From: Acutalibacteraceae bacterium
GTDB taxonomy: Bacteria > Bacillota > Clostridia > Oscillospirales > Acutalibacteraceae
DNA length: 26,612 nucleotides
NCBI GenBank assembly: GCA_045613005.1
Contig: JAZLAD010000155.1
Span: forward strand, 1-26,612
Direction of reading: 5' to 3'
The position numbers and the translations under genes were made by a program. A model generated the notes under the pieces. That model did not search any database and had not been told where the DNA came from. It saw only the letters and a program-made list of their open reading frames with translations. Shown here piece after piece: positions 10,080 to 26,612 of the stretch (within the stretch, counting starts at the first letter, position 1; the number at the start of each line of letters is the position of its first letter).

Positions 10080-10307
10080 TTAAACTTTTTTCGTTTTAGG
10101 ATAACGTTCTTTAAGGTCGGTTTCGCCGAGCAGATAGTCGACACTGGTGTTGTAAAAACGGGCGAGTTTTATTAAAACTGCAGTTGGAATATCATTTTCG
10201 CCTGTTTCATATTTAGAATAGCCTGTTTGCGACATCTCTAAAATTTTTGCAACTTCTGTTTGGTTTAAATCTTTGTCTTCTCTTAAATCTCGAATTCTCT
10301 TATACAT
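10080..10307 (-). CDS. XRE/Cro-C1 family HTH regulator
   Basis: 75 aa; RIRDLRED..LNQTEVAKILEMSQTGYSKYETG...SVDYLLG. Confidence 0.92.
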   Translation of the reverse strand: MYKRIRDLREDKDLNQTEVAKILEMSQTGYSKYETGENDIPTAVLIKLARFYNTSVDYLLGETDLKERYPKTKKV

Positions 10308-10348
10308 AATACATTTTACCCCAACTAATAATATTATGTATATTTTAG

Positions 10349-10393
10349 TTTAATCTAAACCAGGTTATTGAAATTTAATCTGAAATAGGTTAT
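10349..10393. promoter_or_regulatory. Two tandem quasi-palindromic operators, TAATCT-N5-AGGTTA
   Basis: TTTAATCTaaaccAGGTTAT (10349-10368) and TTTAATCTgaaatAGGTTAT (10374-10393), 25-bp period. Confidence 0.65.
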
Positions 10394-10396
10394 AAT
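10368..10396 (+). promoter_or_regulatory. Sigma-A promoter of the SLOG-like gene
   Basis: TTGAAA (10368-10373), 17 nt, TATAAT (10391-10396). Confidence 0.75.
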
Positions 10397-10414
10397 CGAA
10401 AACGAGGTGATATT

Positions 10415-10852
10415 ATGTATTCGTGTACCTTTATAGGTCATAGTGATTGTGATAAAAGCATTAAAGAAAAATTGATTTTTGAAATTGAAAATTTAATAAT
10501 TAATCAAAAGGTCTACACGTTTTACGTCGGAACGCAGGGCGGGTTTGATAGGCTGGTGTATGAGTGCTTGTGTGAGCTTGAGGAAAAATATGACATTAAA
10601 GTAGCGGTGGTCTTAGCCTATTTAAACCGTGAAGATGACCTGACGTATTACGATACTAAAAAAACTCTTTTTCCCGATTGCCTTACAAAAACACCGCCGA
10701 GGTTTGCAATAAGTAAACGAAACGATTATATGTTTAAAAATTCGGATTATTTGATTTGTTATTTAGATAATCAGTTTTCTAATACTTATGAGTTGATTTT
10801 AAAAGCAGTTAAGAGAAATAAGAAAATTATAAATTTGGGAAGGCTGCAATAG
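10415..10852 (+). CDS. DUF1273/YspA-related SLOG-family protein
   Basis: CTFIGHS...FYVGTQGGFD...VVLAYL...AISKRNDYM..NSDYLICY pattern; SD GAGGTG. Confidence 0.65.
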   Translation: MYSCTFIGHSDCDKSIKEKLIFEIENLIINQKVYTFYVGTQGGFDRLVYECLCELEEKYDIKVAVVLAYLNREDDLTYYDTKKTLFPDCLTKTPPRFAISKRNDYMFKNSDYLICYLDNQFSNTYELILKAVKRNKKIINLGRLQ

Positions 10853-10859
10853 AAAAAAT

Positions 10860-10898
10860 AAAGATGTGTGGAAATTAAAAATCCACACATCTTTTTTT
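10860..10898. terminator. Bidirectional intrinsic terminator
   Basis: AAAGATGTGTGGA-N9-TCCACACATCTTT with flanking A and T tracts, between convergent genes. Confidence 0.85.
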
Positions 10899-10912
10899 GT
10901 TGTTTGTGTTTT

Positions 10913-10939
10913 CGGGACGTCAAAGGCACGGTCCCCTAC
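10913..10939 (-). repeat. GTAG-tagged REP-like palindrome
   Basis: Minus strand GTAG-GGGAC-CGTGCCTTTGAC-GTCCC-G: GTAG tag followed by a GC-rich hairpin, at a gene 3' end. Confidence 0.45.
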
Positions 10940-10948
10940 AAAATAGAT

Positions 10949-12307
10949 TTAGTTTTTAAGGCTTTGCATAGGTGCAGGGATTCTGCCGCCGCGTGAGATA
11001 AACTTTTTAGGGCTTTTTGTAATATTTAGGTCCATAACAGGTCCACTGCCCAAAAGTCCGCCAAAGTTAAGCTCCTCTCCAACACCCTTGCCGATAGCGG
11101 GTATAACTCTGACTGCTGTGGTCTTTGAGTTTACCATACCTATTGCGGCTTCGTCGGCAATTATCGCCGAGATAACCTCTTCGGGAGTGTCGCCCGGAAT
11201 AATTATCATATCAAGACCTACAGAGCAAACCGCCGTCATAGCCTCCAGCTTTTGAATGGTGAGTGTGCCCTCTCTAGCAGCCTCTATCATTCCTGCATCT
11301 TCGGACACGGGGATAAATGCGCCTGATAGACCGCCTACAGAGGAAGAAGCCATAACGCCACCTTTTTTAACCGCGTCGTTTAGCATTGCAAGTGCTGCTG
11401 TAGTGCCGTGGATACCGCACTGCTCAAGACCTATTTCTTCGAGTATTCTTGCAACCGAGTCACCAACCGCGGGGGTGGGGGCTAGGGATAAATCAACTAT
11501 ACCGAACGGAACACCAAGTCGGCTTGATGCCACGTTGCCTACAAGCTGACCCATACGGGTAATCTTAAATGCAGTTTTCTTTATAACCTCGGCAATTTCT
11601 CCAAGGTCACCGTTTGGACATTTCTTTATTGCCGACTGTACAACACCCGGTCCCGAAACGCCGACGTGCAGAACACAGTCAGGCTCGCCTACACCGTGGA
11701 ATGCACCCGCCATAAAGGGATTATCCTCGGGAGCATTGCAGAGAACAACCAGCTTTGCAGGACCTAAGCAATTATTATCCTTTGTAAGTATAGCCGCTTG
11801 TTTTACGGTTTTACCCATAAGCGCTACGGCGTCCATATTGATACCCGATTTGGTTGAGCCAATATTTACAGAGGCGCAGATATTGGTGGTTTCGGCTAAG
11901 GCTTGAGGGATAGATTCGATAAGTGCTCTGTCGCCTGCGGAGAAGCCCTTATGCACAAGTGCTGAATAACCGCCTATAAAGTTTACACCCGTAGCGTCTG
12001 CGGCGCGCTGTAGAGTGCGTGCAAATAAAACGGGGTCAGCTCCTGATGCCGCCGCTACCATAGCAATAGGGGTTACCGAAATTCGCTTATTTATAATCGG
12101 AATACCGTATTCCTTTTCAATATCACAACCTGTCTTGACAAGATTACCTGCAAGACGGGTTATTTTATTATAGATTTTATCGCAAGCAACCTTTGCGTCG
12201 GAATCAGCACAGTCAAGCAAGGAAATACCCATAGTGATAGTTCTTATATCAAGGTTTTCCTGCTCAAACATTGTGACCGTTTCCATTATGTCCTTTAAGT
12301 TAAGCAT
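10949..12307 (-). CDS. UPF0210 / DUF711 (PFL family) protein
   Basis: 452 aa; [39 protein letters not shown]. Confidence 0.92.
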
Positions 12308-12326
12308 AGATTAAATACTCCTTAAA

Positions 12327-12596
12327 TTATATGCGGTGCATAGAGTTAAAAACGTCTTCGTGCATAACTCTAACGTCGAGGGATAACTCTTTACCTAAAT
12401 CCTTTAGTGTGTCAACAAAGTGGTTAAAATCATTAGCCTTTGAAACGTCGGTCAGCATAACCATTGCGAAGATATCACTTTGCATAACCGACTGGGTAAT
12501 ATCAACGATATTAACCTCGTGTGCTGAGCAAATAGCGCTTACCTTAGCGATAATTCCAACACTATCTTTTCCAATAACCGAAATAACTGTTCTCAT
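12327..12596 (-). CDS. ACT-domain protein (UPF0237)
   Basis: 89 aa; VISVIGKDSVGIIAKVS...NIVDITQ...MHEDVFNSMHRI; usual partner of UPF0210. Confidence 0.92.
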   Translation of the reverse strand: MRTVISVIGKDSVGIIAKVSAICSAHEVNIVDITQSVMQSDIFAMVMLTDVSKANDFNHFVDTLKDLGKELSLDVRVMHEDVFNSMHRI

Positions 12597-12599
12597 AAA

Positions 12600-13031
12600 T
12601 TAGTTTCCTCTTTCTTGCTTGATTTTTAGCAGTATATCGTAAATGACCTTAACTATAAGGGCACAGAACATAGCCGCACCGCCCGAAATATAGAAAGGCA
12701 TATAGAAAAAACCTGCAATAAACATTATAATACCGCTGAATAAACAACAGAAGGCGATATATATAAGGTCGTAAAGCTTTTTGCCTTCAAAAATAGTGTC
12801 CTTAATAATATTTTTAAGAAATCTTCTAACACAAAAGAGAGCTACCGCGCCAAACGCCACACAGGGGTAGCAGGTTAGCATAACGGTTGCCGCAAGGTCT
12901 GCCGAACGACCTTTAACCTCTACGTACCAACTGATACCGTAGGGAAGCCCTATGGTTAATACAACTAGCGAAAACATAAAGAAATATGTAATTGCAAGTG
13001 AAATCTTGGCACTTTTTTTGTAATTTGACAT
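12600..13031 (-). CDS. DUF2975-like membrane protein
   Basis: 143 aa with four hydrophobic segments and a DUF2975-like layout. Confidence 0.65.
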   Translation of the reverse strand: MSNYKKSAKISLAITYFFMFSLVVLTIGLPYGISWYVEVKGRSADLAATVMLTCYPCVAFGAVALFCVRRFLKNIIKDTIFEGKKLYDLIYIAFCCLFSGIIMFIAGFFYMPFYISGGAAMFCALIVKVIYDILLKIKQERGN

Positions 13032-13062
13032 AAAAAAACATCACATCCTATTTCAAATAACC

Positions 13063-13091
13063 ATTATACACCATATTGCGCATTTTTTCAA
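13063..13091 (-). promoter_or_regulatory. Sigma-A promoter of the DUF2975-ACT-UPF0210 operon
   Basis: Minus strand: TTGAAA (13091-13086), 17 nt, TATAAT (13068-13063). Confidence 0.75.
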
Positions 13092-13133
13092 GTAGTCGGT
13101 GAAAGTCGCAAGTAAATATATTACTTTACCCAT

Positions 13134-13162
13134 CGAACGGTGGTCCGGACGCCGTTCTTTAC
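13134..13162. repeat. GC-rich hairpin in the leader of the phage-like operon, possibly a degenerate REP
   Basis: GAACGG-tggtccggacg-CCGTTC; the minus strand reads GTAA-AGAACGGCGTCCGGACCACCGTTC-G. Confidence 0.4.
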
Positions 13163-13195
13163 ATAAATGGTTCTTTTAAGGAGGTTGAGAAGTAG

Positions 13196-13462
13196 ATGAA
13201 AAAGGACGCTTCTCAAAAAATAAAGGATTCGCTGTCGCAGCTTTTAAGCGGAGGGTTATCCGAGCGGGAGGAGCAGGAGCTCAAAAAACAAGGCTTCGAT
13301 ATAAAAAAGCCGACAAGAAGCGCCGCTATAGCTATCGCCCTTTACAAAAAGGCTGCGGCAGGTGACCTTAGTGCCATTAAAGAACTGCGAAGTATGCTGC
13401 CGCAAGAGGAAACTACCGCTACGGAAAGGACAGTTAAAATAATCGATGATATCGGAGATTAA
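13196..13462 (+). CDS. Putative terminase small subunit
   Basis: 88 aa; overlaps the TerL start; ALYKKAAAGDLSAIKEL helix and C-terminal VKIIDDI strand resemble TerS proteins; SD AAGGAGGT. Confidence 0.65.
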   Translation: MKKDASQKIKDSLSQLLSGGLSEREEQELKKQGFDIKKPTRSAAIAIALYKKAAAGDLSAIKELRSMLPQEETTATERTVKIIDDIGD

Positions 13463-14732
13463 GCTATCAAAGATAGTGGGTAAGGGGTATGATGATTTTT
13501 GGCGGTGCAAAGCCAGGTACAGAGTGCTAAAAGGCGGTAAGGCCTCTAAGAAGAGCACCACTACAGCGCTCAACCTCATCTACCGCTTAATGAAGTATGA
13601 AAACAGCAATCTTTTGGTTGTGCGTCAGGTAATGAACACGCACAGGGATTCTACCTTTGCTCAACTTAAATGGGCGCAAGAAAGACTGGGCGTAGAGCAT
13701 TTGTGGGCAAACACCGTAAGCCCTATGGAGATGACCTATAAGCCCACAGGACAAAAGATACTTTTTCGCGGCTTTGACGACGTGCTAAAAATCGCTTCTG
13801 CCACCGTATCTTACGGCTATCTTAACTTTGTGTGGATAGAGGAAGCCTTTGAAATTGGCGATGAATCGGATTTCGATAAGCTTGATTTATCGGTGCCTCG
13901 AGGAAAAATACCGCCCCCGTTATTCAAACAGACCACCATGACCTTCAATCCTTGGAGTGATACGCACTGGCTCAAAAAACGCTTTTTTGATAAAGAGCAG
14001 AAAAACTGCGAGGTGTTTTCTACAAACTATCTTACAAATGAGTTTTTAGACAATACCGACCGTGAAATTTTTGAGCGTATGAAGAATGAAAATAGAAGAA
14101 AATACGAGGTGGCAGGTCTTGGTAATTGGGGTATTTCAGAGGGGCTTGTTTTTGAAAACTGGAGTGTAGGTAAGGTATCTATAGAGAGTGATGAGGAATA
14201 TCTTTGGAGGAGTTTTTTCGGTCTTGATTACGGCTACACAAACGACCCTACCGCATTTGTTGCCTTTAAAGTGAATCCAATCGAAAAGAAGATATATATA
14301 TTCGATGAGTTTTACAAGAAGCGGATGCTAAATTGCGACATCGCAAACGAAATTATACGAAGAGGCTATAAAAAAGAGCGAATAAGGGCAGACTCGGCAG
14401 AGCCTAAATCAAACGATGACCTACGAAGACTTGGTATTTCCCGTATTACACCGTCTGTAAAGGGTGCGGACAGCATACTAAACGGCATTGCAAAAATCAA
14501 TGAATACAAAATAATAGTTGACCCAAAATGCGTCAATATGATAAAGGAGCTGTCATCTTACGTCTATGACGACAAAAGATTTCAAAACGGACTAAGGCTT
14601 CCAAAAGACACGGACAACCATCTCTGTGATGCTATGCGGTATGCCTTTGAGGACGTTAAGTTTTTTAAACCGCTTAACGACAGTAGCGGCGGCTCCTATG
14701 CGCAAGTATTCAATGGAGGTTGGAATGTGTGA
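13446..14732 (+). CDS. Phage terminase large subunit, PBSX/SPP1-like family
   Basis: 428 aa; Walker A GGKASKKS, Walker B VWIEEA, TFNP motif, nuclease GLDYGYTNDPTA and DNHLCDAMRYA. Confidence 0.95.
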   Translation: MISEIKLSKIVGKGYDDFWRCKARYRVLKGGKASKKSTTTALNLIYRLMKYENSNLLVVRQVMNTHRDSTFAQLKWAQERLGVEHLWANTVSPMEMTYKPTGQKILFRGFDDVLKIASATVSYGYLNFVWIEEAFEIGDESDFDKLDLSVPRGKIPPPLFKQTTMTFNPWSDTHWLKKRFFDKEQKNCEVFSTNYLTNEFLDNTDREIFERMKNENRRKYEVAGLGNWGISEGLVFENWSVGKVSIESDEEYLWRSFFGLDYGYTNDPTAFVAFKVNPIEKKIYIFDEFYKKRMLNCDIANEIIRRGYKKERIRADSAEPKSNDDLRRLGISRITPSVKGADSILNGIAKINEYKIIVDPKCVNMIKELSSYVYDDKRFQNGLRLPKDTDNHLCDAMRYAFEDVKFFKPLNDSSGGSYAQVFNGGWNV

Positions 14733-14881
14733 TTTATCTAGTATTTTTTATAGGTTTTTCGTCAGGCTTATTACTCGGATTGCTTGTGAGATTTTTAATA
14801 AGAAAAATAAAGAAACCCTTTAGGTATAAAAAATACGTTAACGAGTATAAAAGCTTTTTGGAGTTTGACGGAAGCCTTTAA
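14729..14881 (+). CDS. Small single-TM membrane protein (50 aa), absent from the ORF track
   Basis: Translated by hand: MIYLVFFIGFSSGLLLGLLVRFLIRKIKKPFRYKKYVNEYKSFLEFDGSL*. The GTG start overlaps the TerL stop (GTGA), and SD GGAGGT lies at 14715-14720. Confidence 0.75.
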   Translation: MIYLVFFIGFSSGLLLGLLVRFLIRKIKKPFRYKKYVNEYKSFLEFDGSL

Positions 14882-14899
14882 AATTTCGCAGGAGGAAAA

Positions 14900-15505
14900 A
14901 TGGAAAAGCAAGAAAATATCAAAGGTCAGGAAAAAATTGCAGAGGTTCCTGACGATAATAAAACAATCAGTGTAAAGTTCAATAAGGAAGTAAAGGAAAT
15001 ATCTCTAGAAGAGGCTAAGGAATTAGCGCAAAAGGGAATGAAATTCGATGCTGTAAGCGAAATGCTTGAGCGACTCAAAAACCTTAGCATAAGCGAGGGA
15101 AAGAGCGTTTTAGAATATATAGCACATCTCGAAAAGAAGGCTATGCTAAAACGAGCCGAAGGCTTAATTGAGGGTTGTTCTGATAAGGATGAGCTGTTAG
15201 AGCTTATTACAAATTTAAGTCTCGATAAAAAGCCGAACCTTTCGGGCTTTGAGGAGTTACAGTCAGCTTATCCCGAAATAGACGACGTTTCAAAAGTGCC
15301 CGAAGAGGTGCTCGAAAACGCTAACCTTTACGGCAGAAACGTTTTTGACCAGTATCTGAGATACTTGTTTGAAAAAAACAAACGCGAAGAAAAAATTAAA
15401 AAGACTCTTGCCGATAACAAAAGTATCGGCTCACAGTCTAAAAAAGATGATGGCAGCTTTGACCCTGTTGGCAGTCGTTTTTTAAAGGGACTTTGGGGTA
15501 ACTAA
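14900..15505 (+). CDS. Putative capsid scaffolding protein
   Basis: 201 aa, charged and helical; VKFNKEVKEISLEEAKELAQKGMKFD resembles a recurrent phage scaffold motif; directly upstream of the capsid gene; SD AGGAGG. Confidence 0.7.
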   Translation: MEKQENIKGQEKIAEVPDDNKTISVKFNKEVKEISLEEAKELAQKGMKFDAVSEMLERLKNLSISEGKSVLEYIAHLEKKAMLKRAEGLIEGCSDKDELLELITNLSLDKKPNLSGFEELQSAYPEIDDVSKVPEEVLENANLYGRNVFDQYLRYLFEKNKREEKIKKTLADNKSIGSQSKKDDGSFDPVGSRFLKGLWGN

Positions 15506-15537
15506 GCTAAAACTTTAAATATAAAGGAGAAATTTAT

Positions 15538-16713
15538 ATGTCAATTAATTCAATAGAAAATGCAGTAAGATATTCAGATGAGCTAGACCTTTTGTTTGAA
15601 CAAAAGAGCGTAACAGGTTTTTTTGCCGACAATGCTTTGGCTACAAAGTTTGTAGGTGCTAAAACCGTAATCATTCCCGACGTGGATTTTCAGGGCCTTG
15701 CAGATTATGACCGTGATACAGGCTTCACCCGCGGCGCTATAACTGTAAGTAACAATTCATATACAATGCTTATGGACAGAGCACGTTCCTTGCAGATTGA
15801 CCGCGAGGATATGGACGAAACCGGTATCGCAAACCTTGCAGGTAAGATACTTGGCGAGTACGTTAGAACAAAGGTAGTGCCAGAGTGCGATGCCTACGTG
15901 CTTTCAAAGCTTGCAGGTCTTGCGGCTACAAGAGCAAATACAATCGACGGCGACGTCACCAAGCCTTTTGAGGCACTTTGTAAGCTTATTAACGAGGTGC
16001 AGAGTGTAGCGGGTTACGATGAAGAGCTTGTAGCCTTTCTTGATAGCGGTATGTACGCGGCTCTTTCCAATTCAAACGAAATTTCCCGAATGATTACCGT
16101 GTCCGACTTTAAGCAGGGCGAGGTAAACCTAAAGGTTAAGTCGCTAAACGGCGTAGCACTTCTCCCTGTTGTTTCAGAGCGTATGAAGACAGCCTACACC
16201 TTTAACGCTACCGGTGCCGGTGGCTTTAAGCCGATGTCTTCGGCTCGAGAAATTTATATGCTGGTATGTCCTAAGCGCAGTGCTCACCTTGTAAAGAAAA
16301 CCGAGCAGATGAGAATTTTCACTCCTGAGCAGAATATTGACGCCGATGCATACAAGTTCGATTACAGAATTTATTACGACGTATTCGTATCAGGCAGCGG
16401 TCTTGATACTATTTGGGCTTGGCTTTCCCCTGCAGTAAACGTAACCGCAGCACCTGTAGGTAAGACGGTTACCGAGGGAAGTATCTCAGGCGACCTTTCC
16501 GTAACTGCTACCTCGAACGCTACACTTTCTTACCAGTGGTACAGCTGTAAGGACGAAAATAAAAACGGTGCTGTAAAGGTAGCGGGCGCTAACAAGAACA
16601 CCTTTACAATTCCTAAGGATTTAACTAAGGGTGCACACTACTTCTTTGTACGTATAATCATTGACGGTATCGCCTATACCGAAACCGATGCGGTTTGCGT
16701 AACTGTTAACTAA
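15538..16713 (+). CDS. Major capsid protein (HK97-fold) with C-terminal Ig-like domain
   Basis: GAKTVIIP, GLADYDR, DRARSLQID..DMDET, EYVRTKVVPECDAYVLSKL, YKFDYRIYYDVFV are coat-protein motifs. Residues ~298-391 are beta-rich with LSVTA...LSYQWY...GAN..TFTIP.....YF. Confidence 0.88.
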   Translation: MSINSIENAVRYSDELDLLFEQKSVTGFFADNALATKFVGAKTVIIPDVDFQGLADYDRDTGFTRGAITVSNNSYTMLMDRARSLQIDREDMDETGIANLAGKILGEYVRTKVVPECDAYVLSKLAGLAATRANTIDGDVTKPFEALCKLINEVQSVAGYDEELVAFLDSGMYAALSNSNEISRMITVSDFKQGEVNLKVKSLNGVALLPVVSERMKTAYTFNATGAGGFKPMSSAREIYMLVCPKRSAHLVKKTEQMRIFTPEQNIDADAYKFDYRIYYDVFVSGSGLDTIWAWLSPAVNVTAAPVGKTVTEGSISGDLSVTATSNATLSYQWYSCKDENKNGAVKVAGANKNTFTIPKDLTKGAHYFFVRIIIDGIAYTETDAVCVTVN

Positions 16714-16734
16714 AATTTACAAGGTTTTTACCTT

Positions 16735-16776
16735 CCGCTCTGCAGCTGACAGCACAAAAACTGCAGAGCGGTTTTT
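16735..16776 (+). terminator. Intra-operon terminator/attenuator-like hairpin after the capsid gene
   Basis: CCGCTCTGCAG (16735-16745), 15-nt loop, CTGCAGAGCGG (16761-16771), TTTTT; the portal SD GGAGG follows at 16781. Confidence 0.65.
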
Positions 16777-16791
16777 AAAAGGAGGAAATGT

Positions 16792-18381
16792 ATGAAAATA
16801 AAACCTCAGGAAATATTTGGTGAATATACAAAGGCGGTAAATTTTAAAAAAGGCATTGGCGCGAAGGGTATTTTCGAGCAAAGCCGAATTAACGAGAGAT
16901 TTTATAGGGGTGACCAATGGCACGGTATCGATAACACAAGTAAAAAACCGCTTGTGCGCCACAATATTGTGAAAAGAATAGGCGACTATAAGATGTCGCA
17001 GATTTTATCTAATGATATACGGGTGGATATTTCAGCCGAGGGTGTGCCGCATATTCCGCAAGAAAGCATTAGCAGTGTCAAGACGTTTAGCGGTGCCGCG
17101 GCAGATGAGAAAGAAATAAACGCAGTTTTATCCGCCCTTTCAAATTATAGAGAGATAACAGCCGAACGAATGAAGTTTGACACTCTGTGTGCCAGAGCGC
17201 TCAAAAACGCATTTATCAGCGGAAGCGGTGTTATTTACACCTATTGGGACGGCGATATAAATACAGGGCTTTTTGCCGAAAACACATCAAAAACCGCTAT
17301 AACGGGAGATATAAACAGCGAGGTTATAGATATTGAGGACGTATATTTTGCCGATCCGTACAACACCGATATACAGGCACAGGATTACGTGATTATAGCC
17401 TCTCTTTCAGAGCCTAAGGCGGTTTTAAGGGAGGCAGAGCGCTCTAGAACCGATAGATACAGTATTTTAAAATTAAAGGAAACAAAGGATGAAAAAGTTT
17501 TAGTGCTGACAAAGCTTTATAAAGAAACTAATCCTGATGGCACTATCACCGTTAAATGTATTAAGGTTACCGAAAAGGCGGTTGTAAGACAAAGCTTTGA
17601 TACAAAGCTCAGACTCTACCCTATAGCAATATTTAATTGGGACGAACGCAAAAATCTGGTATACGGCGACACCGAGCTTACCTACCTTATTCCTAATCAA
17701 ATAGCGATAAACAGGATGATTACAGCAAACGTGTGGTCTGCAGTTACACTTGGTATGCCGATGATGGTTGTAAACGGTGACACGGTTGACCAGAACATCA
17801 CTAACGACCCGGGGCAGATTATTAAAGTGTTCGGCTCGAACGAGGACGTAGCAGGTGCCGTGCGATACGTAGCACCGCCCGACGTTTGCCGAGAATTTGG
17901 AAGCGGAATAAACGAGCTTATAAAGAACACGCTTATTCAAAGCGGCGCCAACGAGGTAGCGCTTGGTGACTCAAAGGCTGAAAACGCAACCGCGCTTCAG
18001 TTTATGCAGAGCGCGGCAACGCTACCGCTAAAGCTTATGAAAAGAAGATTTTATGCTTTTGTTGAAGATATAACACGAATTTGGGCGGATTTTTGGGTTA
18101 CACATTACGGAATTCGCAAAATTAAGTTAACCGACGGCAACGCTACCTATTTTATGGAATTTGATGCGGTAAGATATAAAAATTTATATCTTACAGCCAA
18201 GACACAGGTACTAGATAAGGCTGAGTTTTCGCTTAGCGACACTATGTCGGCTTTGGATAATTTGCTTGATAAGGGAATTATTGATAAAAAGCAGTATTTA
18301 GAAAGGCTTCCTAAGGGATTGATTACCGGTACCGAAAAAATTTTTGTAAAGGAAGGGGAAAAGCTTAGTGACAGTAAATAA
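16792..18381 (+). CDS. Portal protein, P22/podovirus-like
   Basis: 529 aa; RFYRGDQW...PLVRHNIVKRI N-terminal motif, YGDTELTYLIPNQIAINR, plus context. Confidence 0.8.
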   Translation: MKIKPQEIFGEYTKAVNFKKGIGAKGIFEQSRINERFYRGDQWHGIDNTSKKPLVRHNIVKRIGDYKMSQILSNDIRVDISAEGVPHIPQESISSVKTFSGAAADEKEINAVLSALSNYREITAERMKFDTLCARALKNAFISGSGVIYTYWDGDINTGLFAENTSKTAITGDINSEVIDIEDVYFADPYNTDIQAQDYVIIASLSEPKAVLREAERSRTDRYSILKLKETKDEKVLVLTKLYKETNPDGTITVKCIKVTEKAVVRQSFDTKLRLYPIAIFNWDERKNLVYGDTELTYLIPNQIAINRMITANVWSAVTLGMPMMVVNGDTVDQNITNDPGQIIKVFGSNEDVAGAVRYVAPPDVCREFGSGINELIKNTLIQSGANEVALGDSKAENATALQFMQSAATLPLKLMKRRFYAFVEDITRIWADFWVTHYGIRKIKLTDGNATYFMEFDAVRYKNLYLTAKTQVLDKAEFSLSDTMSALDNLLDKGIIDKKQYLERLPKGLITGTEKIFVKEGEKLSDSK

Positions 18382-18718
18382 CGTTTATAATTCTGCAATA
18401 AAGCTTTTAGGCTACAACAATGCGTATTTATCCATTGAGGATAACGACATACTCAAGAAAAGGGCGGTAGAATTTGTAAACCGCATTGGCTTTGACCTGT
18501 TTAAAATGCCGTCGGTAAACGGTTTTTTAGAGGAATTTAACATTCCACCTAATGCCTTAGAGGCACTCATATACGGAGTTTGTATGCTTATTAGCCTCTC
18601 AGAGTCAGACGGCGACAAAAACCGACTTTTTACCGAGCTTTACAATCTCAAACGGTCAAGCTTTAAATCTTGCGTAACAAAAATAACCGACACCTTTCCT
18701 GCAAGTTTAGAGGTGTAA
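18368..18718 (+). CDS. Putative head-tail adaptor (P22 gp4 / T7 gp11-like)
   Basis: 116 aa helical protein (MTVNNVYNSAIKLLG...ALIYGVCMLI...FTELYN) between portal and nozzle; GTG start overlaps the portal end. Confidence 0.5.
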   Translation: MTVNNVYNSAIKLLGYNNAYLSIEDNDILKKRAVEFVNRIGFDLFKMPSVNGFLEEFNIPPNALEALIYGVCMLISLSESDGDKNRLFTELYNLKRSSFKSCVTKITDTFPASLEV

Positions 18719-18720
18719 AA

Positions 18721-20823
18721 ATGAGATATTCGTATTTGAAAACAACGCCTATTAAGGAATTATCCCTTAAAGATTTTAGCGGAGGACTCAACACTTTAAA
18801 CCGCGAGGATTTAATTCTTGATAATCAGCTAAGTGACGGCGCGAATTTAATATTTAAAGACGGCTATCTTACAAGCCGAAAGGGTGTCTCCTTTAACCTT
18901 GAGGAAGCTATAGGCAATTTTGATGAATCAGGAAGCTTTCTTAAGGGGCTTAAAATAACCGATACTGAATTTTCAAAGGATAATAAAATCCACCGAGTAG
19001 CCTATGCTCTTTGGGGTGACAATCTGAACTACCAGACGCTTTATATTTATTTTGTTTCTTCTGATAAAAAATTAACGTCTGCAGGAAATTTTGAGTTTAC
19101 AAGGACAAGTGCTGACATATATTATACCTTTTCAAACATAATATTTTTAGTAGGAAGAAAAACTAAGGGCTGTGGACTATATGCGTTTTTAAAGCTTAAA
19201 TCAGAAGATAGGAATCTTTATGAAATCTATGAGTTAGGCTCTGATTTTAATCAGTGGCTAAAAATACAAGGCGATGATATTTACACGCCCATCGTACTCT
19301 TGAACGGCAAAGGTGATAAATATGCCAGCGCTTTAAGGGAGAGTGATTTTAGCGCTGAGGCTACAAAAAGGCCTGAGAAATTTAATATGCTCACACCCCG
19401 TTTTAAAGCGTATTTTACAACCGACGGATATTCTGATACCTTTCAGCTGCCAATAAAAAGGCTAGCCGAAGACAGTGACGTTTTATGCAGATTCTACGTT
19501 TCGAACGATATTTATTACGAGTGGCATATATATGCGGGAGAAAAGATGATTACAACCAAAGTAGGTAACAAAAATATTACTATGATTTGTTACAGAAGCT
19601 CGGCAAATATAGTCTTTTTTGATGAACAAGGCAACGTTTGTCCGCTATCACGAAACTATTTGCTTGATGGAAATAATCTTGTGGTTGAGGCTTCAAGAGA
19701 GGATTCGTATACCATTTCGCAAATAGCAGGCTGTGAGCATTGCAAGGTGTATAATTCAAACGTCTTTTTTTACGGTAATCAAGAAAACGTAAGCAATATA
19801 TATGGTACAACAACCGCAAATCCACTCTATTTTCCCGAAAATATGAAGACCTCTGTAGGAAATCATAGCGATAGGATTTGCGCTATGGCGGTGCAAAACA
19901 ACAAGCTGATAGCATTTAAAACTAACGAAATTTATCAGGTGTATATAGATAAAAGCGAGAGTGAGCTACTGTGGGACTCGTTAGTAGACAGCACCTCTAC
20001 AAGCTTTGAAACAAAACAGCTGAGGATATCGCTTATACACGGCAGTATTGGTTGCGGCAATAGGGAAACCTTGGCGGTTTGTGGAAATAGACTTGTTTGG
20101 TTAGGCGCTGACGCTAAGGTCTACACCCTTGCCACCACAACCTACGGAAAGGAAAACAACGTATACTGCCTATCCGATCCCATATCTAACCTTTTAAAGG
20201 CATATAATACGCAAGAAATTTCAAGCGCCTTTGCCTTCGATACCGGCGGATATTACGCGCTTTGCATAGCAGAAAGCCTGTATATGCTTCACTACCGCAT
20301 AAAAAATTTCGGTATTTCGCCTGTTTATACAGCAGTGGGAAATCCCCCTCAAACCATTGCCTGGTACGTTTTAAAACTGCCAAATCAGAAATACTATTCG
20401 GGATATTCGTATAACGGCGAAATCAACCTTTCGTGCGGTGACGATAATTTGAAATACTGCGTTTTATCCTCGCTTGACGGTGAAACCGATAATATCTTAC
20501 GTACAGAATACGGAGATGCTTTTAAGGAAACGGCTCAGATAGATAGCAGCATCACAACGAAATTTTTATATTTTAGTGAGCCTTGCAAGAGGAAAATAAT
20601 AGAAGACGTATACGTTAGTATGGACTTTTCAGGTGAGGCTGATATAATATTAAACGATGGTTATATAGAGCACAGGCAAACTGTATTTTCTCAAAAGACA
20701 CAAAAAGTGCCTATAAGAATAGCGCCGCATTTTAGAGGTGTATACGGTTTAAGTGTTACGGTAAAATCTGAAAATCCTATCAAGATAAACTCTATTTCGG
20801 TAAGATATAAAAATTTAGATTAA
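18721..20823 (+). CDS. Putative tail nozzle / DNA stabilization protein (P22 gp10 / T7 gp12-like beta-propeller)
   Basis: About 700 aa from ATG 18721 (SD GAGGTG); N-terminal DFSGGLN motif, beta-rich repeats, IGC.NRETLA..GN.LVWLG, C-terminal strands typical of nozzle proteins. Confidence 0.65.
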   Translation: MRYSYLKTTPIKELSLKDFSGGLNTLNREDLILDNQLSDGANLIFKDGYLTSRKGVSFNLEEAIGNFDESGSFLKGLKITDTEFSKDNKIHRVAYALWGDNLNYQTLYIYFVSSDKKLTSAGNFEFTRTSADIYYTFSNIIFLVGRKTKGCGLYAFLKLKSEDRNLYEIYELGSDFNQWLKIQGDDIYTPIVLLNGKGDKYASALRESDFSAEATKRPEKFNMLTPRFKAYFTTDGYSDTFQLPIKRLAEDSDVLCRFYVSNDIYYEWHIYAGEKMITTKVGNKNITMICYRSSANIVFFDEQGNVCPLSRNYLLDGNNLVVEASREDSYTISQIAGCEHCKVYNSNVFFYGNQENVSNIYGTTTANPLYFPENMKTSVGNHSDRICAMAVQNNKLIAFKTNEIYQVYIDKSESELLWDSLVDSTSTSFETKQLRISLIHGSIGCGNRETLAVCGNRLVWLGADAKVYTLATTTYGKENNVYCLSDPISNLLKAYNTQEISSAFAFDTGGYYALCIAESLYMLHYRIKNFGISPVYTAVGNPPQTIAWYVLKLPNQKYYSGYSYNGEINLSCGDDNLKYCVLSSLDGETDNILRTEYGDAFKETAQIDSSITTKFLYFSEPCKRKIIEDVYVSMDFSGEADIILNDGYIEHRQTVFSQKTQKVPIRIAPHFRGVYGLSVTVKSENPIKINSISVRYKNLD

Positions 20824-20845
20824 TTTGCTAAAAGGGGGAAGGGAT

Positions 20846-22015
20846 ATGAAAAAAAGGGTGTTTATTTGCTTTGTTTTGGTTTTATGCTGTCTTTGCGGAT
20901 GCACTGTACAGCAAAATGACAAAACCGAAACCGAATTGCCAAAACAAAAGCAAACAGATAATATAAAAGGGGTTTGGATAAGCTATCAGGAGCTTGATTC
21001 AATGCTTAATTCTAGCGATTTTAAATCAGAGTTTGAAGCCGCGGCGGATAAAATGCAAAAATCGGGAATAAGTGACGCTTACATACACATAAGAGCTTTC
21101 GCCGATGCTATTTACAAGAGCGAACTTTTTCCCATAAGAGCTGCTGCCGACAAAGACTTTGACGTTTTAGAGTATATGATAAACATATGTCACAAAAAAA
21201 ACATTCGTTTTCACGCTTGGATTAACCCCTACAGGATAAAAACCTCTGACAGCGATAAAACAACCCTTTCGCCCTTTGGCACTATTTACGGTTGGCTTAA
21301 CGACGAGGACACAGATAATGATAACAACGTGCTCAGTTATAACGGTTTGTATTTAAATCCCGCTTCGAGCGAGGTGAGGAAACTTATAATCGACGGTGTG
21401 CGAGAGGTAATTTCTAATTATAGCGTTGACGGTATTCATTTTGACGATTACTTTTATCCCACCACCGACGCTTCATTTGACAGCCTTTCGTATGAAGCGT
21501 ACACCGGAGGTAATCAAAACCCTATGTCGCTAGCAGATTTTCGCAGAGCTAACGTTAATTCGCTTATAAGCGGATGCTATACCGCAATTAAGTTTTACAA
21601 TAAGGATATAGAGTTTAGCATAAGCCCTACCGCCTCGATAGATAAAAACTATAATGGGTATTTTGCCGATATTGAGGCGTGGGTGGAAAATTCTTGCGTG
21701 GATAGAATAATACCTCAGCTTTATTTCGGCTTTGAATATCCCGATAAAAATTTTAGATTTGATACGCTCTTAAAGGATTGGAAAGAGCTTTTTGAAAATT
21801 ATGATACAAAGCTGACAATTGGTCTTGCCGTCTATAAAATAGGAACAGACGCAGAGCCCGATTGCTTAGAATGGCAAGAAAAGACCGATATACTAAAAAG
21901 ACAGGTGGAATTAATAGATAAGGATAAAACACTTAGCGGCTACGTGTTCTTTTCGTATTCCTATCTCTTTTCAGAGGATGAGCAAATAAAAAAATCGACC
22001 AAGGATTTAATATAA
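20846..22015 (+). CDS. GHL10/DUF187 (YddW/DigH-like) glycoside hydrolase lipoprotein
   Basis: Likely start ATG 20846 (MKKRVF...LCGC lipobox); KGVWISY, FHAWINPYR, YLNPA, DGIHFDDYFY, IIPQLYFG. Confidence 0.85.
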   Translation: MKKRVFICFVLVLCCLCGCTVQQNDKTETELPKQKQTDNIKGVWISYQELDSMLNSSDFKSEFEAAADKMQKSGISDAYIHIRAFADAIYKSELFPIRAAADKDFDVLEYMINICHKKNIRFHAWINPYRIKTSDSDKTTLSPFGTIYGWLNDEDTDNDNNVLSYNGLYLNPASSEVRKLIIDGVREVISNYSVDGIHFDDYFYPTTDASFDSLSYEAYTGGNQNPMSLADFRRANVNSLISGCYTAIKFYNKDIEFSISPTASIDKNYNGYFADIEAWVENSCVDRIIPQLYFGFEYPDKNFRFDTLLKDWKELFENYDTKLTIGLAVYKIGTDAEPDCLEWQEKTDILKRQVELIDKDKTLSGYVFFSYSYLFSEDEQIKKSTKDLI

Positions 22016-22057
22016 AAAGAACTACGGCTATCGGAATTTCCGATAGCCGTAGTTTTA
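22014..22057. terminator. Bidirectional intrinsic terminator
   Basis: Perfect 17-bp arms AACTACGGCTATCGGAA-t-TTCCGATAGCCGTAGTT between convergent stops. Confidence 0.9.
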
Positions 22058-23584
22058 ATCTTTATTTTGTAAACAAAGCTCTATACCTAAAACACCGTAC
22101 AGTTTTTGTTGTTCTTTAGAATAATACTTTTTCATATCATCAGGTGTCGCTTGTGTTACGTTTTTGCTGGTATATCCGCATTTAAGCAAGGGCAAAGATT
22201 TGTACAACTCATCAAAAGAATTAAATTTATGTAATTTTAAGACCTTGGTGCTAAGCGTTTCGCCGCTTGAAGCGTTTGTGAAAACAATAGTATCTCCTAC
22301 GTTTATTTGCTGACGCTTTTCATCAAACAAACGAAGCTCTATCGTTTTTTGCCCACTTTTTATCATCTTGAAAGGGGAGGGATTAAGCTTCATATTATGA
22401 TTTGCCGGTTTACGGTACAAAAGCACACAGCACTCCACGTGATCGGTATGAGGAAACATATCGACAGGTTGAATTTTGCGAACGTTATAGCCTTTACGGA
22501 TAAAATATTTCAAATCGCGGGCAAGTGTTTCGGGATTGCAAGAAACGTAGACCACGCGTTTTGGTGCGAGGGTTGCTACCGAATCAATGAATTTTTCGGT
22601 GCTTCCGGCACGAGGCGGGTCCATAATGACCACGTCAACCTTTTCACCAGCTGCCGCCATTTCCACCATAAAATCACCCGCATCGGCAGTGTAAAACTCG
22701 ATATTTTTAATACCGTTGCGTCTTGCGTTAAATTTAGCATCCTTTACAGCGTCGACACTTAGTTCTACTCCAATAACCTTATGGGCATTTTTTGAGGCTA
22801 AAATTCCTATCGTACCCGTACCGCAATATGCGTCAATTACGGTTTCCTTACCCGATAGCTCCATAAATTCAAGAGCCTTTTTGTAAAGCTTTGTGGTCAT
22901 AACAGGATTTACCTGATAAAAGGATTTGGGCGAAATACGGAAAACATTATCAAAAATAGTATCCTCGATATAACCCTCACCATAGAGGGTTATGTTTTTC
23001 TCGCCTAAAACAAGGCTTGTGAATTTATTGTTTACGTTTTGAACTATTGTTGTGATTTCGGGGTGCCTTTGTAAAAGGGCGTTAATAAACGAACGGCTCG
23101 ACGGAAAAATCACACTACCCGTTACAAGCACAACCATTACTTGACCTGTATAATATCCCTTACGCACTAAAACGTGGCGCAAAAAACCGGTCATATTATT
23201 TTCGTCAAACGGTTTTAACTTAAACGATTTTAAAAGCTTGCGAATAGTAACGATAATCGCATCAGCACCGCTATCTTCAATCATACATTCATCAATCGGT
23301 ACGATTTTGTGGGTTGACGACTGATAAACACCCGAAATTATACCCGTTCTGTCCTTACTGAAAGCGGCTTGAACTTTACAGCGGTAATGGGTTGGATTTT
23401 CCATACCAATAATTTCCTTGACCCGACAAAATTTACCGAGCAGCTTTATGCACTTTATTTGCTTATATTTAAGTTGTTCGGGATAGGTCATATTTTGCAA
23501 ATGACACCCACCGCACTTTTTATAGTGCGGACAGCCGTTTCCCTTGCCAACCTTTACGGTCGGCTTTTTGATATTATTTTGCAT
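22055..23584 (-). CDS. rlmD: RlmD/RumA-family RNA m5U methyltransferase (no TRAM domain) fused to a C-terminal ASCH domain
   Basis: CPHYKKCGGC Fe-S motif, SFYQVN, DAYCGTG, DPPRAG, YVSCNP, DMFPHTDHVE. Then MKL..SPFKMIKSGQKTIELRLFDEKR..I.VGD.I.F (ASCH) at 22055-22402. Confidence 0.88.
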   Translation of the reverse strand: MQNNIKKPTVKVGKGNGCPHYKKCGGCHLQNMTYPEQLKYKQIKCIKLLGKFCRVKEIIGMENPTHYRCKVQAAFSKDRTGIISGVYQSSTHKIVPIDECMIEDSGADAIIVTIRKLLKSFKLKPFDENNMTGFLRHVLVRKGYYTGQVMVVLVTGSVIFPSSRSFINALLQRHPEITTIVQNVNNKFTSLVLGEKNITLYGEGYIEDTIFDNVFRISPKSFYQVNPVMTTKLYKKALEFMELSGKETVIDAYCGTGTIGILASKNAHKVIGVELSVDAVKDAKFNARRNGIKNIEFYTADAGDFMVEMAAAGEKVDVVIMDPPRAGSTEKFIDSVATLAPKRVVYVSCNPETLARDLKYFIRKGYNVRKIQPVDMFPHTDHVECCVLLYRKPANHNMKLNPSPFKMIKSGQKTIELRLFDEKRQQINVGDTIVFTNASSGETLSTKVLKLHKFNSFDELYKSLPLLKCGYTSKNVTQATPDDMKKYYSKEQQKLYGVLGIELCLQNKD

Positions 23585-24927
23585 TATTTTCTCCTTAACA
23601 AAAGTGCCACAGTTTCACAGTGTGCAGTTCTTGGAAACAAGTCACAGGGGGTATATTCTTTAAGCGTGTAGCCAAGCTCAGTGAAAAGCTTGATATCACG
23701 GGCGAGTGTTGACGGGTCACAGGAAACGTAGACTATTTTTTCGGGAGAAAAATCGTTTGCCACGGTTTTTACAAGTGATTCATCACAGCCCTTTCTCGGT
23801 GGGTCTAAAATAACCACGTCGGGAGAAAGACCTCTGTTTTTAAGGTCCTTTGCGGCGGTGGCGGCATCCGCGCAAATAAAGTCTGCATTTGAAAATCCGC
23901 CGTTTGAAGCATTCTTTTTAGCATCTTCTACAGCCTCGGGTATAATTTCTACACCGATTATCTTTTTAGCCTCATCTGCCATAGAAAGACCTATGGTACC
24001 TGCACCGCAGTAAAGGTCTAATATTATTTTATCCTTAGGCTCTGCGTATTCCTTGGCGGTATTATAAAGTATTTCTGTCATATCGTGATTAACCTGATAA
24101 AAGGATAGAGGAGAAATAGAAACTTTAACACCGCAAAGGGTGTCGGAAAGCGTATCGCTGCCGTAAAGGATTAAGCACTCGCTTCCTAAAACAACGTTGG
24201 TTTTTTGTTTGTTTTTATTTATCTGCAGGCTTTTAAACTTTTCACCAAGCGCTGATTTAAGCGCTTTAATCAAGCTATCTGAGAAGGGAAGTTTATCTCC
24301 GTTAATAACTACTACCGCCATAATATCCCTGAGTGATGAACAGCGCAGATAAAAATGTCTTACAAGACCCTTGTGGGTTTCTTCCGAGTATATAGAAATA
24401 TTTTTTTCTTTAATCCAATTTTCAAATACGTTTATAGCGGTGTCGAATTCCTTTGGCTGTAAAAGGCAGGTATTACACGGCACTATTCTGTGCGAATGGG
24501 TAGAATAAAAACCTACTTTGCCTTCTTCACTTACAGGGTACTGCGCTTTATTACGGTAAAAAAAGGGGGATAACGCTTTTATAGGCTGTGGCGCTAAATC
24601 TATGCCGCCTATTCGCTTTATACAGTTATACACTGAGTTTTGTTTAAAGTTTAGCTCACTCTCATAGCTTATGTGCCTGAAAGCACAACCACCGCACCTT
24701 GAAAAAACCGGACAATCAGGCTCGGTTCTGTCCTCAGAAGGAGCAAGAATTTCCTCTATTTTTCCAAAGGCATAGTTTTTCTTTAGTTTTACTATTCTTA
24801 CCGTTAAGCTATCGCCGATAGCGGAATTCGGCACGAAAACAGCAAAGCCCTCATATCTTCCGATACCGAAGCCTTTATCGGTGTAGTCGGTAATGTTTAG
24901 TTTAATTATATCGTTCTTCTTCATCAT
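23584..24927 (-). CDS. rlmD: 23S rRNA m5U1939 methyltransferase RlmD with TRAM domain
   Basis: N-terminal TRAM domain, CPVFSRCGGC, SFYQVN, DLYCGAG, DPPRKG, YVSCDP, DLFPRTAHCE. Confidence 0.92.
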   Translation of the reverse strand: MMKKNDIIKLNITDYTDKGFGIGRYEGFAVFVPNSAIGDSLTVRIVKLKKNYAFGKIEEILAPSEDRTEPDCPVFSRCGGCAFRHISYESELNFKQNSVYNCIKRIGGIDLAPQPIKALSPFFYRNKAQYPVSEEGKVGFYSTHSHRIVPCNTCLLQPKEFDTAINVFENWIKEKNISIYSEETHKGLVRHFYLRCSSLRDIMAVVVINGDKLPFSDSLIKALKSALGEKFKSLQINKNKQKTNVVLGSECLILYGSDTLSDTLCGVKVSISPLSFYQVNHDMTEILYNTAKEYAEPKDKIILDLYCGAGTIGLSMADEAKKIIGVEIIPEAVEDAKKNASNGGFSNADFICADAATAAKDLKNRGLSPDVVILDPPRKGCDESLVKTVANDFSPEKIVYVSCDPSTLARDIKLFTELGYTLKEYTPCDLFPRTAHCETVALLLRRK

Positions 24928-24928
24928 A

Positions 24929-25369
24929 TCAGTATTTTTTAGGTATTACGTTTCCGTCTTGGTCAACAAAGCCTTCGCCCTCTAAAGCACCCTCTTTAAA
25001 CAGAGAAACACCGTTTCTGCAATCGTAAAAGCCGCCGTGGCAAACGTCAAGCGGAATACTGTTTATAACGGCAACGTCGTTGTTAGCCCAGATAACCTCA
25101 ACCGAGTCTATTCCTGTTTGCCAAAATACGTTAGAGGTTTTGTCTTTTGTTTTAACCTCGGCTCTTACGGCACTGCCAAGTGAATTTTCAACACAGTAAA
25201 CGTTAATTACTTTATCGCCTGTAGGTGAGCTTACGGTGGATATAATCTTACCCTGAGGAAGCTTATTTATATCTGCAAAAAGACTGCTTTTAACGGTGAA
25301 AAATAAATTAACTAAGGTTATAACAAGTGTAAAAACGTAAATCATTATAAACAACGGCTTAGTTTTCAT
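24929..25369 (-). CDS. DUF5412-like membrane-anchored protein
   Basis: N-terminal TM; SSPTG...VY...AVRAEV...VFWQ...V.W.NND.AVIN. Confidence 0.6.
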   Translation of the reverse strand: MKTKPLFIMIYVFTLVITLVNLFFTVKSSLFADINKLPQGKIISTVSSPTGDKVINVYCVENSLGSAVRAEVKTKDKTSNVFWQTGIDSVEVIWANNDVAVINSIPLDVCHGGFYDCRNGVSLFKEGALEGEGFVDQDGNVIPKKY

Positions 25370-25381
25370 AAAGCTCCCTCC

Positions 25382-26173: not shown

Positions 26174-26185
26174 TCCTTTTAAATA

Positions 26186-26612
26186 TTAAAGTGTTTTAAG
26201 CTTGGCAAAGTTTGCCATAAGCTTTTTTGTGCCTGTATTTTCAAATGCAATTTCGAGCAAGGTATCACTGCCCATTGGGGTTGCCTTTATTATCATTCCC
26301 TTGCCGAAGGTGTTATGAACAACAGTTTGTCCTGCTACAAAGCTGCAGGAATTGGATTTTGGTTTAGAAAAGGAACTGTTACCAAACGACGTCGGCGCAC
26401 TTCTTTGAAGCTTTGGCGCAAAGTCGTTATTAGCATAACTATTACTGCTCTTTTGGTGAGAAGCAAAGAAACCGCCTCTTGTATCGGAAGTATCGTTTCG
26501 GTATTTAATCGGTATTTCGTTTAGGAAGCGTGACGGCGCATTTCTTGTTGTAGAGCCGTAGAGCATACGCGAAGAGGTGGTTGTAATGGTAAGCTTTTGC
26601 TTTGCTCTTGTC
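26186..26612 (-). CDS. pcrA: PcrA/UvrD helicase, 3' part (runs off the window)
   Basis: The frame continues to the window edge as TRAKQKLTITTTSSRMLYG...SRFLNEIP (motif VI), followed by the C-terminal Tudor-like V.H..FG.G.I...LEIAF...GTKKLMANFAKL. Confidence 0.88.
   Translation of the reverse strand, partial: TRAKQKLTITTTSSRMLYGSTTRNAPSRFLNEIPIKYRNDTSDTRGGFFASHQKSSNSYANNDFAPKLQRSAPTSFGNSSFSKPKSNSCSFVAGQTVVHNTFGKGMIIKATPMGSDTLLEIAFENTGTKKLMANFAKLKTL

Follow-up and report, generated by a model that had tools for sequence, protein, structure and literature searches.

The DNA analyzed here ("the window") is a stretch of 26,612 nucleotides (nt) of an Acutalibacteraceae bacterium, from contig C155 of a 1.26-Mb metagenome-assembled genome (MAG; G000) that is 88% complete with 5.5% contamination. 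At positions 13196-22015 it contains a candidate phage-derived particle operon, consisting of nine co-oriented, intact and tightly spaced open reading frames (ORFs; g1 to g9). A preliminary description of the window had claimed such an operon, and every ORF was found where it had been placed, with intergenic gaps from g1 to g9 of exactly −17, −4, 18, 32, 78, −14, 2, and 22 nt, the end of g1 overlapping the start of terL by 17 nt. The features of the operon are as follows.

13095-13113, + strand: promoter-like motif (A)TGTCGGTGAA(T/A)GTCG(C), conserved upstream of g1
13196-13462, + strand: g1, small terminase-like (TerS-like) protein of 88 amino acids (aa), assigned by position and a weak motif, with no recognizable helix-turn-helix (HTH) domain
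13446-14732, + strand: g2, large terminase (TerL) of the PBSX family, headful type, by Pfam and NCBIfam matches
14729-14881, + strand: g3, single-pass membrane protein of 50 aa with a hydrophobic N terminus, its start overlapping the TerL stop
14900-15505, + strand: g4, scaffold candidate of 201 aa, assigned by its position before the capsid gene alone, with no family match
15538-16713, + strand: g5, major capsid protein of the HK97-type family phrog_422 (6.3e-70, residues 3-296)
16714-16791, + strand: stem-loop in the capsid-portal gap, a candidate attenuator or transcript-stabilizing hairpin
16792-18381, + strand: g6, portal of 529 aa (phrog_156, 5.1e-19)
18368-18718, + strand: g7, head-to-tail adaptor candidate of 116 aa, a four-helix bundle between portal and nozzle
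18721-20823, + strand: g8, tail nozzle of 700 aa, by fold matches of its AlphaFold model
20846-22015, + strand: g9, GHL10 (DUF187) lipoprotein (PF02638, 1.4e-43)
22018-22056, no strand assigned: strong bidirectional intrinsic terminator with an 18-bp stem and T runs on both strands, closing the operon and the convergent rlmD gene

Family matches bear out the identities proposed earlier for TerL, the capsid protein, the portal, and the GHL10 lipoprotein. TerL matches Terminase_3 (2.7e-48) and Terminase_3C (4.4e-26) in Pfam and TIGR01547, "PBSX family" (4.6e-49), in NCBIfam. The capsid protein is 71 to 80% identical across the genus and 94 to 97% identical in the closest species and bears about 95 extra in-frame residues forming the C-terminal immunoglobulin (Ig)-like domain, whereas portal identity across loci is 49 to 60%. 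Pfam and NCBIfam gave no family for g3, g4, g5, g6, g7, or g8, and PDB sequence searches gave no match for profiles of g1, g5, g7, and g8 or for the portal sequence. Searches of family libraries recognized no protease in the operon and returned no sheath or tube family.

The nozzle is identified by fold. An AlphaFold model of g8, built from an alignment of 20 homologs (predicted local distance difference test [pLDDT] score, 87.6), had as its top 29 Foldseek matches in the PDB only tail proteins of portal-tail complexes, nearly all from short-tailed phages and including the nozzles T7 gp12 and P22 gp10 (E, 2e-20 to 2e-9; template modeling [TM] score, about 0.5). The name given to g8 is thus confirmed at the level of the modeled fold, as is the short-tailed type claimed for the element. 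This protein is the fastest evolving of the operon (24 to 41% identity between species). For g7 (model pLDDT, 84), the top fold matches are podovirus adaptors, namely, those of cyanophage A4 and Sf6 (gp7), and these are weak (E, 0.1 to 0.7; TM, 0.46 to 0.62, with 0.61 for Sf6 gp7). A 23-nt direct repeat (96% identical) has one copy in the portal gene (18167-18189) and the other at the end of the nozzle gene (20798-20820) and may be due to chance.

The small genes are as constant as the large ones. g1 is kept in all loci, its only family matches being weak ones to DUF5681/phrog_2412; alignment with the HTH-bearing TerS of related phages (hhalign probability, 33%) was confined to the core motif, and its designation as a TerS lacking the HTH is a putative one drawn from position and this weak motif. 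g4 is likewise present in all loci, at 35 to 51% identity, and related phages have a protein of about 270 aa at the same place. A small ORF occupies the place of g3 in 101 of 105 loci, 97 of which have a strongly hydrophobic N-terminal stretch in it; its C-terminal motif, EYxNFLxYDG(S/T), is near-invariant. The protein matches no known family, and g3 is a genuine gene.

The gap between the capsid and portal genes folds into a stable hairpin in 77 of 77 loci (median minimum free energy, −24.9 kcal/mol; median z score against shuffled sequences, −4.5), with the structure conserved and the sequences differing. This hairpin probably determines how much capsid and scaffold is made relative to portal, adaptor, and nozzle. 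The Ig-like domain of the capsid (16429-16713) resembles repeats of large proteins (open frames of 486 to 1630 aa) in other genera of the order and is 42 to 44% identical to repeats in G025 and G034, which suggests that the extension was captured from a host domain.

The flanks consist of ordinary chromosomal genes, as had been stated: DUF711/UPF0210, ACT, and DUF2975 upstream and two rlmD-like methyltransferases, DUF5412, DUF975, and pcrA downstream. Inspection of the genes and repeats of the window found no integrase, no replication gene, and no bracketing direct repeat or attachment (att) repeat, and the base composition of the operon is like that of its host surroundings. Synteny with a 65-kb contig from a close relative (L084) extends over about positions 10,080 to 26,566 of the window, from an HTH gene to pcrA, and an independent bovine metagenome contig covers 10961-19674; a chimeric contig is ruled out by these two findings. 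The rlmD-like genes (22055-24927) are a tandem pair of the TrmA family, the first with an ASCH domain at its C terminus; the first copy is 39% identical to its L084 counterpart and the second 80%.

The element is common in its genus. A full-length capsid ortholog including the Ig domain occurs in 170 of the 212 species genomes (89 of the 108 of high quality) and is single copy in all carriers but one. The order g1-g2-g3-g4-g5-g6-g7-g8 is invariant in the approximately 100 loci fetched. Related loci are found in MAGs from human, ruminant, and horse guts, including Ruminococcaceae bacterium UBA737 and UBA1734, and the window sequence itself was found in Logan contigs of bovine and sheep gut metagenomes only. 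An order-wide search for TerL at ≥62% identity recovered this genus and two sister genera only; the same element, GHL10 and promoter motif included, occurs in sister genus g18.

Several observations bear on how the element is inherited. First, an rpoB tree divides the sampled species into two clades, and the upstream neighbors DUF2975-ACT-DUF711 are retained in exactly one of them, which answers the synteny check that had been proposed. In the other clade, the operon has different neighbors and an extra XhlA-like gene (c8) downstream; a clade X query for this gene found none in five clade Y genomes, and the XhlA-like copy of the source genome is on a 1.8-kb contig. Second, a tree of TerL, capsid, and portal agrees with the rpoB tree in 9 of 12 splits for the 15 genomes common to both; with shuffled labels, the number of shared splits averaged 0.22 and never exceeded 3. 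The three discordant splits are poorly supported. Third, of the four sampled species that lack the element, three group in a single clade. One of the genomes without the operon, G018, has an "empty site" (L080; G018:C14, 8493-10151), at which GHL10 lies 124 nt from DUF2975-ACT-DUF711, g1 to g8 are cleanly absent, and the genome has no motif sites. We propose that vertical inheritance of the element predates the radiation of this large uncultured gut genus.

Selection and copy number were assessed on the same loci. The ratios of nonsynonymous to synonymous substitution (dN/dS) against the closest relative, L084 (DUF711 99% identical), are 0.13 for g1, 0.07 for TerL, 0.17 for g4, 0.046 for the capsid, 0.10 for the portal, 0.11 for g7, 0.12 for g8, and 0.15 for GHL10, with g3 alone higher, at 0.47. 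Host flanks give 0.014 to 0.19, and other close pairs agree with the operon values (TerL, 0.05 to 0.07). Purifying selection at a level like that of flanking host genes is therefore supported for the operon. Genuine internal stops or deletions were seen in about 4 of 98 distinct loci, e.g., a split g8 in G013, a broken capsid gene in L144, and a portal-to-nozzle deletion in L099. In three independent metagenomes, assembler depth of the element equals that of its flanks (e.g., 9.98 versus 9.9, 9.2, and 8.2). One metagenome contig bridges the host-element junction, and no joint skipping the element was found among the assembled contigs, from which rare forms would escape. One possible RNA run consists of fragments of 250 to 400 nt from host and element alike.

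These results agree with the earlier claim of a host-maintained element and bear directly on the view that the operon only looks conserved and is in fact an inert relic of a prophage or a piece of an active temperate phage. The decayed loci and the clean loss in G018 speak for that view, as do short fragments of the element that IMG/VR lists as viral. It is nonetheless highly improbable: about 94 of 98 loci keep intact ORFs despite saturated dS, dN/dS is 0.05 to 0.17 for most genes, and congruent trees, single copy, flank-level depth, host-like composition, and a lack of mobility genes in the window all argue against it.

The operon is connected with other parts of the genome by the promoter-like motif. 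The motif core is upstream of g1 in 71 of 89 loci, whichever genes flank the operon, and the sister genus has it as well. In most loci a TATAAT-like −10 element follows about 13 nt past it; no sigma-70 −35 hexamer was found on the + strand at the window motif. Exact sites number one to five per genome in 15 of 24 sampled species, compared with one site in 16 outgroup genera, about none for a reversed control, and none in the 4 sampled species without the operon. In the source genome, the full 16-nt form occurs only three times, in addition to a one-mismatch copy on C156 that precedes a collagen-repeat, tail-fiber-like gene. The copy on C135 is followed by genes for a 98-aa membrane protein, an endolysin (Amidase_3 with two CW_7 domains), and an r1t-type holin. 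The statement that the element has no tail fiber thus holds within the window but not beyond it, as fiber and lysis genes occur at other loci with the same motif.

In other species, the motif precedes operons with fiber, XhlA-like, endolysin, and holin genes and operons with genes for GH25 or M23 lysins. Orthologous holin and amidase genes directly follow GHL10 in G011 and G020, contiguous with the operon, and a contiguous head-tail-lysis element, with GHL10 inside it in those genomes, is therefore probably ancestral. A search of the four sampled species lacking the operon found no close ortholog of the fiber or the endolysin. The motif, common to the dispersed loci and not found in these four species, suggests one dedicated regulator, probably an activator or a sigma factor for which it serves as binding site.

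GHL10 had been counted as part of the cluster. Most loci have it after g8; in some clade X species, such as G011 and G020, the lysis genes come after it in turn, and in G002, G004, and G024 no GHL10 gene follows g8. Probably it is cotranscribed with the operon, but its membership in the particle system is uncertain because it remains in G018, which lost g1 to g8.

Other genes after motif copies, namely, a resolvase (G013), an integrase (G020), and sites in the dnaA region, are treated as unrelated or unexplained. In L173 (G022:C16) and L180 (G006:C5), an exact motif precedes dnaA-dnaN-recF by about 1.1 kb, and a gene on the opposite strand separates the two; these copies may be due to chance, or possibly reflect a link with the origin region. 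A further copy in the source genome, on C164, is near a ToxI-repeat/ToxN-like locus (L185; C164, 5000-6535), about 330 nt ahead of a ToxN/AbiQ-like ORF that is truncated by the contig end. A sigma-70-like promoter, two direct repeats of about 35 nt, and a hairpin lie between the motif and this ORF, and the locus looks like a type III toxin-antitoxin system.

Close homologs in complete phages, which the preliminary description had set, together with patchy occurrence, against the idea of a host-maintained element, do exist, but as a separate sister lineage (type II). They include prophages of the genus (L033 in G008, L034 in G003, L035 in G014, L037 in G021:C24, and L038 in G022:C12) and IMG/VR viral contigs of 20 to 39 kb (L191-L196 and L200); complete related phages are about 33 to 39 kb. 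Their gene order is mostly TerS-TerL-scaffold-capsid-portal-adaptor-nozzle, with the portal elsewhere on a few IMG/VR contigs. Identity with the element (type I) is 67 to 73% for TerL of the genus prophages and 54 to 76% for TerL of the IMG/VR contigs, 42 to 63% for the capsid core, and 44 to 47% for the portal, and the two types are reciprocally monophyletic with full support. Among INPHARED records of cultured phages, no close relative was found (best capsid match, 36%).

The two lineages differ in content as well as in sequence. Type II phages have an HTH-bearing TerS (PF13022), where g1 of the element lacks the HTH, and a longer scaffold (about 270 aa) and portal (about 600 to 630 aa). Their capsid lacks the Ig domain, which among the related phage loci examined was seen in L189 alone; this locus is intermediate, its capsid protein bearing the Ig domain while its TerS, TerL, and portal are of type II. 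Unlike the element, type II phages have replication genes and an ArpU-like regulator, are patchy in occurrence, and lack the promoter motif, which was not found upstream of their TerS genes. In G022, for example, the genes upstream of the type II cluster encode PcfJ, DUF3102, a DnaD-like protein, a rolling-circle Rep, and the ArpU-like regulator. G021 and G022 carry both the element and a type II cluster.

This coexistence could be read as the mark of an anti-phage or satellite-like element that interferes with assembly or packaging of the related phages of about 35 kb, or is mobilized by them. Sister phages of matching gene order occur in this genus, two of its genomes having both; this would fit, as would the shorter scaffold, portal, and TerS of the element and the motif copy adjoining the ToxIN-like locus. 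We consider it improbable, given that the motif is absent upstream of phage TerS, that no phage-type late activator was found in the source genome, that the element has its own fiber and lysis genes and no integrase or primase was found, and that strict cophylogeny and immobility exclude a transferring satellite. Taken together, the element is, with good confidence, a vertically inherited, selectively maintained, multilocus short-tailed particle system.

What such a particle would carry is addressed by additional genes behind the motif. In G019 (two copies), G021 (L168:350-1255), and G022, the motif precedes a gene for a 190-aa protein that joins a C-terminal MuF fragment (PF04233, 1.4e-6; phrog_241, 1.4e-11) to a barnase-type ribonuclease (PF00545, 2.7e-10), and a barstar gene (7e-20) follows. 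TnpV/MuF-like plus DUF6883 proteins with a partner of 83 to 87 aa also recur behind the motif. From their domains, both kinds of pair are predicted polymorphic toxin-immunity cassettes carrying the particle operon's motif. MuF toxins have been proposed to travel inside phage heads (PMC5576092).

The particle could accordingly be a killer or toxin-delivery device, a PBSX-like bacteriocin with which MuF toxins or envelope damage kill nonimmune relatives and in which DNA is incidental. The recurrent cassettes, the PBSX family of TerL, and a fast-evolving nozzle and fibers, which fit strain-level targeting, all lend themselves to this explanation, which overlaps with host-DNA packaging in everything but the payload. 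It is unlikely, however: no MuF toxin gene was found in the source genome, the toxins are accessory in the sampled genomes, the role of the MuF fragment in steering a toxin into the capsid is putative, and the element keeps a full, strongly selected DNA-packaging motor, which a pure protein-delivery device would not need. A combined form, tentative and rather doubtful, would make the particle a chromosomal weapon and courier: under one regulator reading TGTCGGTGAA(T/A)GTCG, cells would fill short-tailed heads with polymorphic MuF-anchored toxins (barnase-type ribonuclease, DUF6883) and host DNA and then lyse, both cargoes would be injected into neighboring strains, and barstar-type immunity would protect kin. 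We know of no earlier case in which MuF toxins were tied to a nonviral, vertically inherited particle.

Our preferred reading, which we consider likely, is that the window contains the head-neck-nozzle operon of a domesticated phage-derived particle system with probable packaging of host DNA. These bacteria probably make their own DNA-filled virus-like particles. We rank gene transfer or host-DNA packaging first, on the analogy of FpGTA, a short-tailed, gene transfer agent (GTA)-like system described in the same order (PMC12946183), and on the HTH-less TerS; toxin delivery or killing would rank second. The proposed sequence of events is as follows. (i) A regulator would act on the motif at the −35 position, switching on the operon and the unlinked motif operons together. 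In the source genome, the latter would be the collagen-like fiber gene and the operon for the membrane protein, Amidase_3-CW_7 endolysin, and r1t-type holin; in other species, the MuF-ribonuclease/barstar and DUF6883-type pairs would be added. (ii) Scaffold and Ig-bearing capsid would be overproduced, with the hairpin cutting read-through into the portal, adaptor, and nozzle genes. (iii) A short-tailed particle would assemble, to be filled by headful by the PBSX-family TerL and the HTH-less TerS-like subunit with DNA chosen at low sequence specificity, most likely that of the host. (iv) The holin and endolysin would lyse a producing subpopulation and so release the particles, and the fiber would bind related cells. 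In this scheme we infer regulation, particle formation, packaged content, and delivered cargo, whether DNA, toxin, or both.

Several points weigh against this reading. The system is known here from genes and assembled metagenome contigs, from which particles and packaging are deduced. Within the operon, TerS and scaffold are assigned by position and the adaptor by weak fold matches, so that this part of the preliminary description stands less firmly than the nozzle, portal, and capsid. The function of the motif is deduced from conservation and co-occurrence, and a search for the regulator among genes downstream of motif copies found no obvious transcription factor. The fiber and lysis loci of the source genome are on other contigs of an incomplete MAG with some contamination. 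A conserved protein (c38; 323 to 349 aa) that follows the nozzle in related phages is absent from the element, and the tail may therefore be incomplete. Finally, the operon was not found in about 18% of the species genomes and is therefore dispensable.

The wider interest of the element lies in the abundance of virus-like particles with bacterial DNA in gut viromes, for which FpGTA is, to our knowledge, the only Gram-positive gut producer locus identified so far. The element would be the second such system of short-tailed type, domesticated independently of the first. About 80% of the 212 species-level genomes in its genus, which is uncultured and widespread in human and livestock guts, carry it, and it is a candidate source of "unexplained" host DNA in rumen and fecal virus-like particle data. 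The promoter motif ties head, fiber, lysis, and toxin loci together and provides a signature for finding the regulator and the rest of the system. Domesticated element and free-living sister phages also form a natural comparison, in which the TerS HTH was lost, the scaffold and portal became shorter, and the Ig domain was gained. If the MuF-toxin link is true, GTAs would be connected with polymorphic toxin delivery, and if the combined weapon and courier is real, a domesticated phage would serve as a toxin-delivery system with exchangeable payloads.

The element has two general features of GTAs. It is a phage-derived structural cluster, chromosomal, vertically inherited, and under selection; and the window has no replication, integration, or excision genes, with no amplification of the locus seen in the contigs of the three metagenomes. 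The particle genes are dispersed, and therefore no single headful would carry all of them unless the capsid holds far more than the approximately 35 kb of the related phages. A literature search found no paper linking Acutalibacteraceae with GTAs.

The capsid-forming phage-inducible chromosomal islands (cf-PICIs) resemble the element in that they encode heads and packaging in their own compact module and have an incomplete set of phage genes. Besides an integrase and a primase-replicase they possess regulators; they are mobile, occur patchily, and use the tails of helper phages. Assignment to cf-PICIs or other satellites was rejected, as no integrase or primase was found in the window and the element tracks host phylogeny.

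PBSX of Bacillus shares the TerL family TIGR01547 with the element and is likewise chromosomal, nonexcising, and vertically kept, with XhlA-like, holin, and amidase genes, and a killing role may apply to both. PBSX, however, is one contiguous cluster of about 28 kb with a contractile, myovirus-type tail and its own repressor, whereas the element combines a podovirus nozzle with head and neck genes totaling about 7.6 kb, and its loci are dispersed. A PBSX-like contractile tail was rejected because only the 116-aa adaptor candidate and the nozzle-fold protein follow the portal.

RcGTA of the Alphaproteobacteria has in common with the element vertical inheritance, purifying selection, and a head-tail cluster with separate fiber and lysis loci, and probably also common regulation of these loci and a TerS that lost DNA-binding specificity. 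RcGTA is siphovirus-like, and its regulator, GafA/CtrA, is known. The sequences of the two systems are unrelated, and the phylum is different.

The closest parallel is FpGTA of Faecalibacterium prausnitzii, a podovirus-like system of two loci with capsids of about 40 nm shown experimentally to contain 8.4 to 8.9 kb of host DNA (Nat Commun 2026, PMC12946183). Both are near-ubiquitous, chromosomal, phage-derived clusters of the short-tailed type in gut Oscillospirales; both have a TerS or TerS-like protein without an obvious DNA-binding domain, lack replication and integration genes, and have unlinked fiber and lysis genes, the second locus of FpGTA encoding fiber/receptor-binding protein, holin, and endolysin. 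Particles and DNA have been seen experimentally for FpGTA and are predicted from genes for the element. The FpGTA capsid belongs to the N4-gp56 family and its TerL to a "Terminase-like family"; a Prp-like protease is also encoded, and the genes run TerL-portal-Prp-capsid (PMC12946183), in contrast to the PBSX-family TerL, the phrog_422 capsid with its Ig domain, and the order TerL-scaffold-capsid-portal found here. Membership in the FpGTA family was rejected, as the element has no N4-gp56 match in NCBIfam, its TerL belongs to TIGR01547, and its gene order differs. The earlier statement that the operon is not a described system thus holds for its families, but not for short-tailed GTA-like systems of the order, one of which was already described. 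The families and gene order of the two differ, and they were therefore domesticated independently; the element would represent an evolutionary lineage of particles not described before.

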